Shown here piece after piece: positions 1-4,830 of a stretch of 46,485 nucleotides of DNA (its first letter is position 1; each line of letters starts with the position of its first letter). The stretch spans positions 1 through 46,485 of the forward strand of contig JBBCAV010000040.1 in NCBI GenBank assembly GCA_051382305.1, in the 5' to 3' direction. The DNA comes from Bdellovibrionota bacterium FG-2 (GTDB lineage Bacteria; Bdellovibrionota; UBA1018). The position numbers and the translations under genes are program-made. The notes below the pieces were generated by a model, which made no database searches, was not told the origin of the DNA, and was given only the letters and a program-made list of their open reading frames with translations.

Positions 1-111
1 CAGCTCTTTCCTGAGCTTGAAATACAGCACTTTTCGTCTGCATTTCGGGATGAAAGTCACATGGTATTTGCATTCCCACCGCGTGTGGCTTAATGATTCT
101 GACTCGTTCAT
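1..111 (-). CDS. tnpA: IS200/IS605-family Y1 transposase, N-terminal 37 aa (runs off the left edge of the window)
   Basis: Not in the ORF track. Reverse complement of 111..1 reads MNESESLSHTRWECKYHVTFIPKCRRKVLYFKLRKEL, the typical IS200 TnpA N-terminus (SLSHxxWxCKYHxxFxPKxRRK). SD-like AGAAAGGAA at 121-129. Confidence 0.93.
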   Translation of the reverse strand, partial: MNESESLSHTRWECKYHVTFIPKCRRKVLYFKLRKEL

Positions 112-225
112 AAATTGGGTTTCCTTTCTGTGTAACTTTGAGCGGTTCACAGTTAGGAGACCCATTCATAGAACGTCTCCGGCAAAAGTCAAACTCCAGG
201 AGTCCCCCAGTATACCTGGGGGATT
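1..225 (-). mobile_element. IS200-family element, left end (partial)
   Basis: tnpA start plus subterminal hairpin TCCCCCAG-TATAC-CTGGGGGA at 203-223, as expected for IS200/IS605 ends. Exact boundary uncertain. Confidence 0.8.
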
Positions 226-470
226 AGCGATTTTATTTATTTACCCGAAGACGGATCCAGCGGTTTGTTGATGAGTTCCGGAAAAAGAGTGGACAACTTC
301 CCACGCTTCAAGACTGCGAGAGAGAAGGACTTACTCGCGAGCAAATCAAGGCGTCCATAAAAGACAAAGTGATCGAGCAGTTTTATGTGACCCTTAGCAA
401 TGGGACCATCATGAAGGGCTACAAAATCAAGTAGCAATTTCTAATATTTCAAGTGACACTATTGACTAAT

Positions 471-1133
471 GTGCGCCAAGCAAAGCTTGAAACAACCAGT
501 GGGTGCGGAAGCCGGTCGGGAGATCACTCTTCCTAGTCTCACCCCGGGAAACACCATAGAGTCCGGGTATCATAGCTGGCGTTCATCACCGCGAGGTGCT
601 GGACGAAGCCCAGTGCGAAACGATGTAGGCCGTAATGCCTTAAGTGGCGTGAAGGTATCGAGCCCCGTTAAACATAACGTTCCAGAGTGGCCGAGTAGGT
701 ATTTAACTGCGAAGGCAACACCCCTCATCTCGATGAGAGGCACTCTCGGGGTCCAAGTCCATGGCATGTATCGAAGGCTGTCTCAGGAACTTGGGAGATC
801 TTCAATGGATCGAGCTTTTAAAAGCTCGTCCCAACGAGCAAGGACCAATGACCAAGTTCGCCAGGATTCGACATTGAAGAAGTCAGACTGGTTCGTAGTA
901 GCATCGAAGCGGAGTAATGTCCGTGGAGCCAAGGGACCAGCAGGGCTTGGGCTCTCGGCGCCTCCCTCCCGGGGGTGTGTTTCAATACACGCCAACCAAC
1001 CCGGCACGAGGAGCGTCGTGCATAACTCCTTCGGGAGCAACCAAGAACTGAGGAGCCCGTTGCCTAAATTGGGCACGGCGGGTTCTGCGAGGGGCCTACC
1101 CTCTTTCGAAAGATTAGGGCAGGTCTACTCTAT
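471..1133 (+). ncRNA. Group II intron, ORF-less (no intron-encoded RT), inserted within a start codon
   Basis: 5' GTGCG at 471. DI basal stem CCAAG(476-480)/CTTGG(790-794). DII GATCTTCAATG(797-807)/CATTGAAGAAGTC(872-884). J2/3 AGA(885-887). DIII CTGGTTC(888-894)...GGACCAG(934-940). DIV only ~110 nt (941-1050). DV GAGCCCGTTGCCTAAATTGGGCACGGCGGGTTC (1053-1085) with AGC triad and AC bulge. DVI with bulged A1127, the 7th nt from the 3' end ...CTACTCTAT(1133). gamma A885 matches terminal U. Confidence 0.93.
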
Positions 1134-1503
1134 GAACCTCACCGATGAACTTATTTTGCTGGGACAGATGGATTTAGCCGAAGCTAAACGAATTCGCTCG
1201 ATCCTTGAGGATCAAGGGGTGGTCTTCCAACTTCGCACCGAGGTGGAGGCTTGTAACTCAAAGGGCTGTAAACCTACGGCGCAGGTTTATACCCGGGATG
1301 CGGACCTACCGGTGATTCGAGAGTTTTTTGAAAAAGAACACGTCAGATCTTTGGCGGGCCTTGAGGTCAACCACGAGCTGCAAAACGCCGTTTTTGATTC
1401 CGAAAAATCAGAAGCCACTTGCCCGGCCTGCGGGACGGTGTTTTCGACTCTGAAGACCGAATGTCCGGATTGCGGGCTTTGTTTTGGGGGACCCACGGGG
1501 TAG
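1132..1503 (+). CDS. 123-aa hypothetical protein with C-terminal zinc ribbon (CPACG...CPDCG); host gene of the intron (spliced start = AT 469-470 + G 1134)
   Basis: The C-terminal third of ORF 469..1503 is protein-like (MNLTDELILLGQ...CPACGTVFSTLKTECPDCGLCFG); the first 221 codons are intron RNA. Confidence 0.8.
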   Translation: MNLTDELILLGQMDLAEAKRIRSILEDQGVVFQLRTEVEACNSKGCKPTAQVYTRDADLPVIREFFEKEHVRSLAGLEVNHELQNAVFDSEKSEATCPACGTVFSTLKTECPDCGLCFGGPTG

Positions 1504-1613
1504 ATGTGGCGGCCCGCTCACCTCTCCGGAGAGGGTGCGACGCATCAAAAACCAAACCAAGCAGCTCTCTTCATGAGTGACACCTTCGGTTATTGCTATA
1601 CCCGACACGCCCC

Positions 1614-1751
1614 TCACGCTCGTCTTAAGTAGAACTCGACCAGATTTGCTAGAAGAATCAAAACCTTGACCAAGACTAAGAGACGCCAAGATTTTAACTT
1701 AAGTTTTGCTAGCGCGATCCGATGGACATAATAGCTGGTATTATGCTTCAT
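1614..1751 (-). CDS. 45-aa basic, hydrophobic single-TM peptide; candidate type I toxin
   Basis: Very strong SD AAGGAGGTGAT before ATG at 1751. Sequence MKHNTSYYVHRIALAKLKLKSWRLLVLVKVLILLANLVEFYLRRA. Confidence 0.65.
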   Translation of the reverse strand: MKHNTSYYVHRIALAKLKLKSWRLLVLVKVLILLANLVEFYLRRA

Positions 1752-1827
1752 AAGATCACCTCCTTTCTTTTTACGAAGAAGGGAAGTGGTTCCATCCACT
1801 CTGCTTGGTTTTGCGGAGGCTGCTAGC

Positions 1828-1908: not shown

Positions 1909-4830
1909 TTGAAGGATATAAATCGTCTGTTGAAGTCTCTTTGGATTTTTGCATTGCTTGCTCTCGTGCTTGGCCCCCCCCAGGGAGTTGCACAAGTCAC
2001 TTACCTCGGTCCTGCGGATCGCTCAGGGCAGTACGCACAATTTGGGCTCACCAAGAAATTCAATGACCGCGTCGAAAAAGAAGCTCAAGAGTGCTTCGAT
2101 TCAAGCACCCCCGTACCTTGCTTTGATGGACTTCTCGCGGCGACCGCGCGCAAATCCAGACAGGAATACCGATCCGCCCTGACCCATGTCGATCCTCTGT
2201 TTCGCTCAGCCGTCAATCAAGTCTGCCCCGGGCAATCCATCGAAGCTTCATTTTGCGCAAAATATGCGCTGGAGATGCTTCTCGAAGATACCTCCACTGC
2301 ATTGCGAGATTTAGATCAACACCCGCCCAAAGACGTCCAGGCGGCTCTTATGCGCGACAAAATGTCTTTAGGCATTTTGATAGAAAAACAGTGCCGACCA
2401 TTTTCCGACAGTTGCTTTCGTAAAGAGCTGGACAAACTCGCGGGAAAAATTCATGCAGCCCGAAAACACATGGGAGTGTTCACACAAAAAGTGGCTAAGT
2501 ATTCAATCCTAACCCGCCACTGTATGCAAAAGTTTAGTGCCGACATCTGCACCGAGGGCGATCGCTATCTCTATCCATTAATGGAGGACTCGATCCCCTA
2601 CAATCCAAGAGCGGTACCCAAACCATCTGGAGATTCTGCCGGCACCGGCAAAGCCACCGCAGCTGGCACGGGAAACGGAACTGGCGAAAAAGGTGATTTT
2701 CTTTCAGCCTGCATTTCCTCCTTCGATGACACTCCTCATGCGGATCAATTTGATGACCACTTTTGCAAACACTCCAGTGATATCAAGAACGCGTTTTCCA
2801 AAGAAGTAGAATTGATTCGAAACATAGGCAAACTCTCCGCCCTCCGCTATTTTGCCCATCTGCGTGAGGAGGCCTATCGTAGATTCTTAGAATCCTACTA
2901 TAGAGTTTTGGGACAAATCCCCTCTCCTACTCCGCCGTCATGCAGAGCTTTTCCTGAGATTCTTTCTGAATTTAAGAAAAATGCTCCACTAAATCCCTCG
3001 CAAGGAACTGAGCCCTCGCCCGAACTTGACCAGGCCGCAGGCCAAATCGAACAATGGTCCACTGAGGCGCGCAATCTTTCGAAGGTCTGGGGCACCGCCT
3101 ACCTAGTGGATTCAGTGAACTATAAGAGAATTCAGCAAAGAATTGGCCAGCTTGAATCCATGATTCTGCAACGGTTAGACGACTACCCCACCCTCGCTGC
3201 AGCCCATCCCCCACGACTTCGTGTCTTCGAAGAAGGGGGACTGCCCTACTTGCGTCCTCTCACGGATTCAAAGTACTCGTATCGCGAAAAAAAGCAGATC
3301 CTAGAAAAAGCTCAAAAGATTGTCGCACGCGATTTAACCGCAACGATGGAGAAGTTTTGCAATTCAAACCCTGACACTGGCGGAGCGAGCTGGACGGATC
3401 TCATTCAAATAGAGGCGCTTACAAGTTCGGCTTTATACAAAAACCCCGTCTATCAAGGGTTTCATGATTGTGCGCTCAAGCGCTTAGAGAAGCGTGACAA
3501 CTTTATTGCGAACAATAAGATTTTTATCACCGCGGGCTGTGCCGTAGGAACCGTGATCACAGAAGGCCTACTGGCGCTGGCTTGTACTCCCGCTTTGGTT
3601 GGCGTAGCAGGCCAGGACTATCTTCAAGCCAGAGAAAAGCAAGCTTGGGTAAACCGCTGCCGAGCCGGAGGCGGCTCCGTTTGCAATGAAACGGAATGGA
3701 AAAAAGCTTATGACGAATTCAACGCCGCATCTTCGGAGCTCGCCCTTGCCGTTGCAACGGCCCCCTTAGATGCCCTCGGCGGAGTGAAGGCCGTAAAGAT
3801 CTTTTCGCGTGCAAATTTTCGAAATTCCGCAATAAAGCTGCTGCGCGAATCCGCGGAAGTTCTATCACCGGCTGAAATGCTCGAGTTTAGCGCAAAACTA
3901 AGGACGGCCCACACGGTTGAAGAAATGGACACGGCCCTTCAGGCCCTGCGCGCTCGCACGTCTCAAACCTCAGTACGAAAAATTGGCAGCGGCGCTGTTA
4001 CGCGGGTTTCAGCTGATGCTGATCTTGCGACGGATCCCGTATTGTTTCAAAAAGCGAGTAAGAAGCTCGAAAAATTGGTCGGTGAAACTGCTGGCACCGG
4101 CCCAAAGACTTTGCATCTTTCATCTCGAGTTCAGGACACTACTGCGGATGTGAGGCAGCTTCAGCGCGCAACTTTTGATCGGGTCAAAGCACGGGCCCCT
4201 CCGGGGACACCTCAACAACAATTAGTAACTGAGGCTCGATCCGCTATTGAGGCGGACCCCCAATATCTAAAGGCGCAAGAAGCGGCAAGAAAAGCAAAGG
4301 CAGATTATCTCAATCATCTTGCCTCCAAACTAGGGGAGGACGCTGAAGTTAACCTCGCGTCATGGGATGACTTAGAAAAGAGTCTTGCAGCCCTTCCCAA
4401 AGAACCAATCCTCAAGTCAGCCACGCCAAAAGTGCTCAAGCGATTTGAAGCAGAGGATCTTGTATTTGATGCGGATGCCGCGAAGCCTGAGCGGATGGAT
4501 CCAAAGAAAATCCGGTTCATGCAAACGGATTGCAGAGACTTGAGCGCAGACGGCAAATATACCGTACTCAAAAACGCTGAGGCCTTAAAAAGTGGGGGTC
4601 TCAAGCCCGAGCATCTGCCCCCTATTCGCCTTTGGCGAGATATAACCGGCCGAGTTTGGACGCTTGATCATCGACGCCTCTCCGCTTATCGTTTAGCGGG
4701 ATTGGATGACGTCCCTGTCGAGTGGGCCAGCAAGGACATTGTAGAATACGAACTTTTCAAGATGCAGACCAAGAACGATGGCCTTTCTATTATCTTGAAA
4801 ACAGATCATGGTAAGATCGAGGTTAAGTAA
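1909..4830 (+). CDS. Large Sec-secreted Cys-rich protein with C-terminal ParB/Srx-like domain; putative polymorphic toxin
   Basis: N-terminal signal peptide, many Cys, a hydrophobic Gly/Ala segment (IFITAGCAVGTVITEGLLALACTPALVGVAG), and C-terminal MDPKKIRFMQ...PPIRLW...VWTLDHRRLSAYRLAGLDDVPVEW, a ParB-like toxin-tip pattern. Confidence 0.75.
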   Translation: MKDINRLLKSLWIFALLALVLGPPQGVAQVTYLGPADRSGQYAQFGLTKKFNDRVEKEAQECFDSSTPVPCFDGLLAATARKSRQEYRSALTHVDPLFRSAVNQVCPGQSIEASFCAKYALEMLLEDTSTALRDLDQHPPKDVQAALMRDKMSLGILIEKQCRPFSDSCFRKELDKLAGKIHAARKHMGVFTQKVAKYSILTRHCMQKFSADICTEGDRYLYPLMEDSIPYNPRAVPKPSGDSAGTGKATAAGTGNGTGEKGDFLSACISSFDDTPHADQFDDHFCKHSSDIKNAFSKEVELIRNIGKLSALRYFAHLREEAYRRFLESYYRVLGQIPSPTPPSCRAFPEILSEFKKNAPLNPSQGTEPSPELDQAAGQIEQWSTEARNLSKVWGTAYLVDSVNYKRIQQRIGQLESMILQRLDDYPTLAAAHPPRLRVFEEGGLPYLRPLTDSKYSYREKKQILEKAQKIVARDLTATMEKFCNSNPDTGGASWTDLIQIEALTSSALYKNPVYQGFHDCALKRLEKRDNFIANNKIFITAGCAVGTVITEGLLALACTPALVGVAGQDYLQAREKQAWVNRCRAGGGSVCNETEWKKAYDEFNAASSELALAVATAPLDALGGVKAVKIFSRANFRNSAIKLLRESAEVLSPAEMLEFSAKLRTAHTVEEMDTALQALRARTSQTSVRKIGSGAVTRVSADADLATDPVLFQKASKKLEKLVGETAGTGPKTLHLSSRVQDTTADVRQLQRATFDRVKARAPPGTPQQQLVTEARSAIEADPQYLKAQEAARKAKADYLNHLASKLGEDAEVNLASWDDLEKSLAALPKEPILKSATPKVLKRFEAEDLVFDADAAKPERMDPKKIRFMQTDCRDLSADGKYTVLKNAEALKSGGLKPEHLPPIRLWRDITGRVWTLDHRRLSAYRLAGLDDVPVEWASKDIVEYELFKMQTKNDGLSIILKTDHGKIEVK

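Follow-up and report, generated by a model that had tools for sequence, protein, structure and literature searches.

Group II introns inside bacterial start codons, with sequence architecture suggesting translation from end to end

The 46,485-nt stretch analysed here (the window; contig JBBCAV010000040.1, positions 1 to 46,485, of Bdellovibrionota bacterium FG-2, assembly GCA_051382305.1) carries near its start a group II intron, which interrupts the start codon of a gene for a zinc-ribbon protein and across which an open reading frame (ORF) runs from end to end. The intron belongs to a clade that sits inside start codons, between AT and G, and its sequence architecture makes it rather likely that the clade is organised for ribosomes to read the whole element, as a translational relay leading from an upstream frame over ribozyme domains I–III to the intron-encoded protein (IEP) and from there to the host gene. 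The parts of the window intron and its host gene are as follows.

471 to 1133, forward strand: ORF-less group II intron, GTGCG...CTAT, 663 nt, equal to 221 codons
469 to 471, forward strand: ATG across the 5' splice site (exon AT and intron G1), read from the sequence, which opens the stop-free frame
469 to 914, forward strand: part of the frame homologous to the upstream ORF of the clade, ribozyme domains I–III; 0, 10 and 8 stops in the three frames
905 to 925, forward strand: remnant of the domain IVa hairpin, from an alignment with 17 relatives
915 to 1131, forward strand: tail of the frame, covering the domain IV remnant, domain V and domain VI; 0, 3 and 3 stops in the three frames
1053 to 1085, forward strand: domain V with AGC triad and 2-nt bulge, folding as the canonical bulged hairpin
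1089 to 1133, forward strand: domain VI, from its fold; its bulged A is at 1127, 7 nt before the 3' end, and the 3' splice site follows T1133
1132 to 1503, forward strand: host gene for a 123-aa zinc-ribbon protein, its ATG made of intron AT (1132–1133) and exon G1134

The element has the ends of a group II intron (5' GUGYG, 3' AY), and Rfam RF02005 (group-II-D1D4-6) matched positions 533–761 over the full model (1–225) with 89.5 bits, compared to a gathering score of 49 (E 7e-24), while RF00029 stayed under its gathering score in the window and exceeded it in 16 relatives. Both the domain V and the domain VI hairpin were present in the minimum-free-energy fold of the last 88 nt of the intron, the bulged A at −7 recurred in 16/16 3' ends of relatives, and by inspection the base changes in domain V relative to a full-length intron from genome G018 were compensatory. 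The window copy is without a reverse transcriptase/maturase gene and holds an IEP remnant of 44 codons (917–1051), with the remnant start ATG at 917. On sequence grounds it is an ORF-less group II intron, and splicing is predicted. The host protein scored 91 bits against NF049953, under the cut-off of 130, and matched Zn_ribbon_3 weakly; an intron-less homologue of the gene in genome G001, from the same genus, is 86% identical and likewise starts with ATG AAC.

A single ORF of 344 amino acids (469–1503) starts at the ATG across the 5' splice site, crosses the intron and joins the host gene. A first-pass annotation of the window had described the 663-nt intron as stop-free for 221 codons from ATG 469, and this was borne out, as the three forward frames between 469 and 1134 contain 0, 13 and 11 stops and the reverse strand 9, 3 and 8. 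Its estimate that chance would yield such a frame at a rate of order 1e-4 was also correct: the rate was 1.0e-4 for independent, identically distributed (iid) nucleotides at a GC content of 0.555, and frame 0 was stop-free in 19/200,000 mononucleotide and 9/50,000 dinucleotide shuffles, with any of the three frames stop-free in 49/200,000 mononucleotide shuffles. The open frame of the window is far from chance. Most of its improbability sits in the domain I–III part (469–914), since this part holds 0, 10 and 8 stops in the three frames and the remainder (915–1133) holds 0, 3 and 3; for the tail 915–1133 by itself, the probability of an open frame by chance is roughly 1 in 20 (~0.05). The intron-coded peptide consists of 14.5% S, 10.4% G, 10.0% R and 7.2% P, and no family was found for it in Pfam.

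The full-length intron in G018, 81% identical to the window intron over intron positions 1–466, encodes a reverse transcriptase/maturase of 487 amino acids. Contig searches returned 20 loci with this IEP as query and 33 with a conserved motif of domain I, in overlapping sets, and the clade members came mostly from metagenome-assembled genomes (MAGs) of Bdellovibrionota and Myxococcota. The IEPs of the relatives measure 487–495 aa, with a score of 317 bits against TIGR04416 (cut-off 300), and 19 of them grouped together with 99/99 support, separated by a long branch from two distant relatives and two other classes; L032 and L038 are outside this tree. At the insertion sites of relatives and own-genome copies, the 5' exon has T at −1 in 24/26, A at −2 in 22/26 and a pyrimidine at −3 in 22/26 cases, with no conservation upstream of −3. 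AT directly precedes GTGCG at 22/26 sites, placing an ATG across the 5' splice site, and two sites end in GT, giving GTG.

The frame opened at the junction was followed in the 22 introns with a recognisable domain IVa motif, omitting L052 (no motif), L053, L062, L063 and L064 (fragments or partial) and L020, L024 and L029 (no 5' part). It was stop-free up to the domain IVa loop in 16/22, and a 17th intron, L028, which lies at a non-ATG site and has 7 stops in the ATG frame, is nevertheless stop-free for 154 codons if read from the GTG of the intron itself. Over the 22 introns the ATG frame contains 24 stops, compared to 160 and 148 in the other two frames, which supports the suggestion of the first-pass annotation that selection may keep the frame open. 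The annotation had proposed to examine homologous copies for missing in-frame stops and for a length divisible by three; the first largely held, whereas the second is not general, as the full-length relatives mostly leave a remainder of one and the ORF-less relatives measure 641, 643 and 786 nt. As controls, three other group II introns of the same genome have 5–9 stops in every frame (over the 440 nt before the IEP), seven ORF-less introns of another lineage have 7–17 stops per frame, and the distant relatives L037, L050, L042 and L066 have 3–9 stops per frame and no AT exon end. On the IEP tree, open frames occur in every subclade and broken frames at nested tips, and because of this nesting the breaks in L022 and L023/L033 are best read as secondary losses.

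Several loci found along the way deserve mention in their own right. The full-length clade member L063 is without the first GT of GTGCG (exon ...GAGT, then ATGCGCC); its homologous frame is still open for 151 codons with the ATG lost, and it either is a dead copy or reflects a misassembly. In L064, on the reverse strand, the intron begins at 1090 of the reversed locus and is represented by a fragment covering approximately the first 375 model positions, which runs stop-free into a 534-codon frame whose later part appears transposase-like by eye, so that it may be an insertion sequence inside an intron, or a fusion. A Myxococcales subclade (L026, L028, L035 and L024) lies mostly outside start codons: the upstream frame is open in L026 and L035, and in L028 from the intron GTG, while L024 is without its 5' part, and the IEP stop overlaps an ATG in L026, L028, L024 and at the 3' end of L035. 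Within this subclade L026 and L035 adjoin long ORFs in another register, and L024 lies within a Ser/Thr kinase gene. A further ORF-less family from metagenome contigs (L117, L097, L093, L095, L081, L092, L104, L112, L115 and L152; ~550–615 nt) shares the start GTGCG(C/T)CACGAAG, has 5' exons ending in G rather than AT, and contains 7–17 stops in every frame.

The upstream frame of the open introns usually ends, after 142–176 codons, at a TAA in the loop of domain IVa, which in the alignment of 17 relatives consists of a covarying stem around a GTAAYG/GCAACT loop, followed by the conserved IEP start (A/G)TGGAGC; the loop TAA either overlaps this start or sits 5 nt before it. In the window, the loop TAA (915–917) is out of frame with ATG 469 (offset 2). 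The IEP frame of the clade passes in turn through domains V–VI, which encode its C-terminus, and in 14/14 cases it closes with a TGA or TAA whose final base lies 1 nt before the last nucleotide of the intron and which overlaps the junction ATG formed by the terminal AT of the intron and the exon G, whereas in 4/4 controls the IEP stop lies 4–39 nt before domain V. The 3' ends read ...ACTT(G/A)AT in 16/16, and exon 2 starts with G in 13/16. The proposal of the first-pass annotation that unspliced RNA might give the host protein by initiation at ATG 1132 thus fits the clade, in which the 3'-junction ATG is rebuilt under an overlapping IEP stop in 14/14. An AGGAG is found on the 5' strand of domain VI in 16/16 full-length relatives (L016–L036), and GAGGGG in the window (1089–1098), with 36–48 nt from the AGGAG to the junction ATG, or ~9 nt if the distal domain VI hairpin forms; a purine-rich domain VI strand is present in the control introns too, and the AGGAG may mean nothing.

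At 16/23 informative sites, the reading frame that begins with the junction ATG is at least 98 aa long or encodes the N-terminus of alanyl-tRNA synthetase (AlaRS). Since Pfam domains start at residues 4–20 of the host ORFs (AlaRS, from profile positions 2–49; PAS; AAA_14; HTH_Tnp_1) and some N-termini resemble signal peptides by inspection, the sequences indicate that these junction ATGs are true start codons. Two types of host recur, namely the zinc-ribbon protein in the window and L022 (E 2e-11), and an AAA_14/DUF4143 ATPase in L031 and L036 (by Pfam) and in C189 (by inspection, from a GPRQxGKTTL-type N-terminal motif).

From this architecture, its conservation and the absence of constraint on the peptide (described below), we infer translation, coupling, leaderless initiation and a benefit to the element in the following way. 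A ribosome would initiate at the junction AUG, probably as the 5'-terminal AUG of a leaderless transcript, read through domains I–III, terminate at the IEP start and reinitiate there; it would then read the IEP through domains V–VI, terminate on the host AUG and reinitiate again. Translation of the long unspliced RNA would protect it from Rho-type polarity and decay, synthesis of the IEP would be limited to the precursor, since splicing removes the AU of the AUG, and the host protein would be made with or without splicing. In the window copy, a frame change upstream of domain IVa would have bypassed the usual TAA, and a deletion of the IEP would then have left one continuous frame, joining the host in frame by happenstance.

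A rival reading is that the frame is kept open only for ribosome cover, with protection from Rho and RNase or the timing of ribozyme folding as the advantage, and that there is no hand-over, the stop-start overlaps being by-products of RNA motifs. The loop TAA and the terminal TGAT/TAAT do belong to conserved RNA elements, the open introns L025, L027 and L034 have CAA in the loop and continue for ~10 codons beyond the IEP start, and the IEP start has a purine-rich stretch of its own upstream, GGAAGTGGGG. However, in 12 open introns, and in L028 as well, the loop TAA is the in-frame stop of the upstream ORF, and it is difficult to account for the placement of the IEP stop unless the point at which translation ends has a function, as the 14/14 at the host ATG stand against 4/4 controls stopping before domain V. 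We regard cover without hand-over as unlikely, and return below to the alternatives that would dispense with translation of the whole element or attach it to a protein product.

The surroundings of the insertion sites bear on how a relay from the upstream frame to the host gene would begin. A motif resembling a Shine-Dalgarno (SD) sequence at −18 to −5 was present in 1/27 5' exons, compared to 38% of 1,640 long-ORF starts and 12% of random positions in the same genome. TANNNT starting 10–14 nt before the A of the ATG was found at 11/26 sites, versus 7.9% of gene starts, and a rough sigma-70 score, taking the A as the expected transcription start, reached an empirical P<0.05 in 13/26 and P<0.01 in 6/26. 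The promoter scan located TTGATC-16-TATTAT in L003 (C142) and TTTACA-17-CATTAT in L005 (C220), whose ends lie 8 and 6 nt, respectively, upstream of the A. The sequence features of leaderless genes, i.e. no SD and a −10 element 6–8 nt upstream of the ATG, occur at a number of the sites, and we infer that many of the hosts would be leaderless genes with the junction AUG as the 5' end of the transcript.

Taken to its furthest extent, this would describe a small, endonuclease-less clade specialised for the 5'-terminal AUG of leaderless genes, which borrows the promoter of the host, is translated as a relay of three frames and is nearly invisible to the host whether spliced or not. In its boldest form, the promoter itself would be used in target choice beyond the four nucleotides of YAT/G (the slash marking the insertion point), with the non-template strand perhaps accessible at +2/+3 of the open complex, where the introns sit. 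This extended proposal is tentative, and we lean against it. A hairpin-based target of the IIC type was also considered for the clade and was rejected, since folding of the 5' exons did not exceed that of shuffled sequences (mean z −0.4; 3/27 below −2) and a terminator-type hairpin was not found in the 5' exons, with a T-run in the last 12 nt in 1/27. The window itself has a terminator-like hairpin at 418–435 (GCTAC...GTAGC, then AATTTCTAAT), where a short ORF that looks truncated ends, 35 nt before the intron.

A number of observations weigh against the translational relay. The ATG frame contains stops in 6/22 introns (4 each in L022, L023, L033 and L032, 1 in L038 and 7 in L028), and since the IEPs of L022 and L023 are nevertheless intact, the upstream ORF is not strictly required. 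No gene is opened by 7/23 junction ATGs, those of L021, L024 (in the kinase gene), L025, L026, L028, L035 and C41. Among the ORF-less relatives found without regard to the frame, a frame uninterrupted over the full length is limited to the window and L052, and matches collected from protein databases are biased towards open frames. The loop TAA, which lies in the IEP-binding loop, and the terminal TGAT/TAAT, on the 3' strand of domain VI, are also RNA motifs, and their role as stop codons could be secondary. With regard to the start of the relay, the promoter scan found none in the 5' flank of the window itself, YAT/G may simply represent the short IBS1/IBS3 (intron-binding site) target used by an intron with IIC-like recognition, and the 5' exon of a leaderless precursor, 2 nt long, may be too short for efficient splicing.

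Another possibility is that the frame encodes a functional protein, for instance a basic RNA-binding helper of the intron. Gene callers predict the frame: 94 public protein clusters match the window frame, most of them ~145–160 aa long, starting with MCA, MCV or MCE in 72/94 and with VCA in 2, with most of the endings tallied being of the EEVE/KEVG type. The peptides are rich in R, S and G, and stretches of the type GVQVHGMYRR are invariant. These stretches coincide, however, with conserved ribozyme sequence, and the differences between homologous frames fall evenly over codon positions 1, 2 and 3 (560, 639 and 584), with non-synonymous codon differences exceeding synonymous ones ~4–6 to 1. 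The register is moreover not fixed, as the first ~80 nt of L028 and L026 are read in different registers with both frames open (in a hand comparison with aligned 5' ends), and the window-type ORF-less family reads domain III–IVa in another register than the full-length introns; the lack of a Pfam family points the same way. Because the codon positions vary equally, the sequence comparison indicates that the conserved feature is an absence of stops and not a peptide, and on the even substitution a functional peptide was rejected as very improbable. The 'dual coding' put forward by the first-pass annotation survives in a restricted sense, as a ribozyme that is predicted to be translated, and not as constraint at the level of amino acids. 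As a practical point, approximately 90 'hypothetical proteins' of ~150 aa in the databases that start MCAKQSL... are ribozyme sequence.

It could further be argued that the ancestor of the clade was open by luck and that its descendants have diverged too little to lose the frame. A single open frame of 149 codons would be expected about 1 time in 400 at the iid rate, the members of the clade are related, so that their counts are not independent, and positions of the ribozyme core cannot mutate freely. Against this, the median pairwise nucleotide identity among the introns is 0.62, and stops have arisen in the other two frames at 66 and 51 distinct columns of the alignment, most of them lineage-specific (36 and 26 in a single sequence), while the 16 open introns have gained none in frame and the 19 in-frame stop columns all stem from the 6 introns whose ATG frame contains stops. 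The length also varies by up to 78 nt, with domains I–III spanning 424–502 nt, and still 17/22 introns keep a multiple of three nucleotides between the ATG and the loop triplet, with open frames in all IEP subclades. Chance combined with shared ancestry is in our judgement scarcely credible.

The continuous frame of the window raises the question whether the fusion is of use as such. For ORF-less copies, a metagenome scan that disregarded the frame gave 111 stretches, of which 80 loci were taken; among these, L142 was the only close relative, 12 to 15 belonged to another ORF-less lineage and served as controls, and the remaining loci did not match the hidden Markov models of the clade. The ORF-less relatives of the window intron are listed below.

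L052, 641 nt: open for 213 codons, ending ACT TGA TG at the 3' splice site, where the TGA overlaps the ATG
L142, 643 nt, in the start codon of alaS: open for 142 codons to the loop TAA, followed by 3 more stops
L038, 786 nt: closed after 30 codons by the first of 6 in-frame stops in the intron

In the protein databases, P0001–P0003 (210–218 aa, 67–73% identity) are window-type ORF-less members that are open through the domain IV remnant and domain V, and P0001–P0005 end in 'ERLG', 'TGEE', 'TGKE', 'IGEE' and 'TGEE', with the aligned ends within the stretch coded by domain VI. Since no fusion to a host gene was found among the relatives examined, the in-frame fusion appears, from these comparisons, to be peculiar to the window copy, and the N-terminally extended isoform suggested by the first-pass annotation does not generalise, as the frames of the relatives are separate and joined by overlapping stop and start codons. 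That the intron-coded extension of 221 residues on the zinc-ribbon protein would be a selected isoform, to which the length of 3 x 221 nt, the junction with the host ORF and the long open tails of P0001–P0003 might point, is barely tenable given that P0001–P0005 stop within domain VI, that L052 has its TGA across the ATG, that L142 and L038 are closed, that the second identical copy in the genome leads into ATG TGA, and that a tail of this length is open by chance at the rate of ~0.05 given above.

Several known introns share parts of the arrangement proposed here. In yeast mitochondria, the IEPs of aI1 and aI2 are read in frame from the upstream exon, as one fused frame that is later cleaved. 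The window clade resembles these introns in that ribosomes of the host gene are predicted to cross domains I–III to reach the IEP, and differs from this organellar case in being bacterial, in having a separate upstream ORF that starts from the splice-site ATG, in the overlap of stop and start, and in the further hand-over to the host. In Ll.LtrB, domain IVa controls translation of LtrA. Here, as in the window clade, the start codon of the IEP is located within a domain IVa hairpin to which the IEP probably binds, and the intron RNA would interact with ribosomes; unlike the window clade, Ll.LtrB is not known to have an ORF across domains I–III and sits inside a coding region rather than a start codon. 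Association of Ll.LtrB RNA with ribosomes is cited in the excerpted text of PMC12584367.

The closest parallel in location is the IIB1 start/stop-codon clade (Michel 2007 as summarised in excerpts of Gomes et al. 2025, PMC12584367), with examples such as Avi.groEL and EcKTE56.groEL in the stop codon of groEL. Both clades comprise mobile group II introns in or adjoining a start or stop codon which the intron end regenerates, with 16/23 sites of the window clade in true start codons. The IIB1 introns have a CL1 reverse transcriptase with a C-terminal endonuclease domain, whereas the 487-aa IEP of the window clade matches only RVT_1 (and weakly RdRP_1) in Pfam, and the window clade also departs from IIB1 in structure, its domains I–III totalling 424–502 nt. 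The excerpted text raises an involvement of ribosomes and states that it is unknown how start and stop codons become colonised; it contains no mention of an ORF through domains I–III or of an IEP frame through domains V–VI. With group IIC, the window clade has in common the small ribozyme, the IEP without an endonuclease domain and a very short 5'-exon match (here YAT), and judged by matches to solved structures alone the nearest reverse transcriptases are those of IIC introns (6ar1, 5hhl and 7uim, E 1e-41 to 1e-40). IIC introns insert after terminator or attC hairpins (PMC7306698, in excerpt), unlike the window clade, whose sites are start codons behind promoter-like sequence and whose IEP frame reaches the 3' splice site.

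Within the passages covered, the literature search returned no report of an ORF over domains I–III, of leaderless targets or of a host ATG overlapped by the stop of an IEP, and Michel et al. 2007 may say more; the term 'start codon' is absent from the excerpted text of PMC4424553. We could not find a description of a lineage-specific, start-codon-resident intron architecture that appears translatable from end to end. Bacterial group II introns are usually described as either avoiding genes or needing efficient splicing, and the clade points to a third strategy, namely residence in the start codon with translation that would pass through the ribozyme and be handed back to the host gene. If this is true, it offers a testable answer to how and why some introns colonise start codons, a question that is open for IIB1, and a bacterial counterpart of the exon-fused intron ORFs of yeast mitochondria. 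It would also constitute a natural case of competition between ribosome traffic and ribozyme folding on a single RNA, and a catalytic RNA kept stop-free in one register over several hundred nucleotides without a conserved protein.

The source genome is a MAG of 433 contigs (G000), and the assembly around the intron calls for some care. At least one further identical ORF-less copy exists in the genome, split over the contig ends C142 and C41, and several diverged copies lie at contig ends, with a full-length IEP on C19. In G001, the sequence preceding the zinc-ribbon gene matches G000:C142 (84% over 1,472 nt), and the gene itself aligns to window 1144–1505; since this synteny pairs C142 with the zinc-ribbon gene, the native 5' flank of the gene is probably C142 rather than window 1–470. 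The join at 470/471 may be the choice of the assembler, and window 1–470 may belong with C41. In flank-pairing searches of G001, the 5' flank of the window had no match and the 3' flank of C41 matched only from query position 489. As both candidate 5' flanks, of the window and of C142, end in AT, the ORF is unaffected by this ambiguity. In the C41 copy, the intron leads into ATG TGA, and a 134-aa lipoprotein-like ORF lies 66 nt further downstream. The leader of the empty site in G001 has 15 nt with GAGGG between TATTAT and the ATG, versus 8 nt in G000:C142, and owing to this difference it gives no clean comparison of filled and empty sites.

Near the intron, no Pfam family was found for a 973-aa ORF at 1909–4830. 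A 55-aa ORF on the reverse strand (1–165) runs off the contig start and contains ...SHTRWECKYHV.FIPK.RRK..., a motif typical of Y1 transposases of the IS200/IS605 type; Pfam gave no match at E 1e-3, and the assignment is tentative. Just downstream of the zinc-ribbon gene, window 1547–1819 and the homologous region of G001 match at least 15 other contigs of the genome (blastn, 75–89% identity over 100–300 nt), and the segment resembles a dispersed short repeat.

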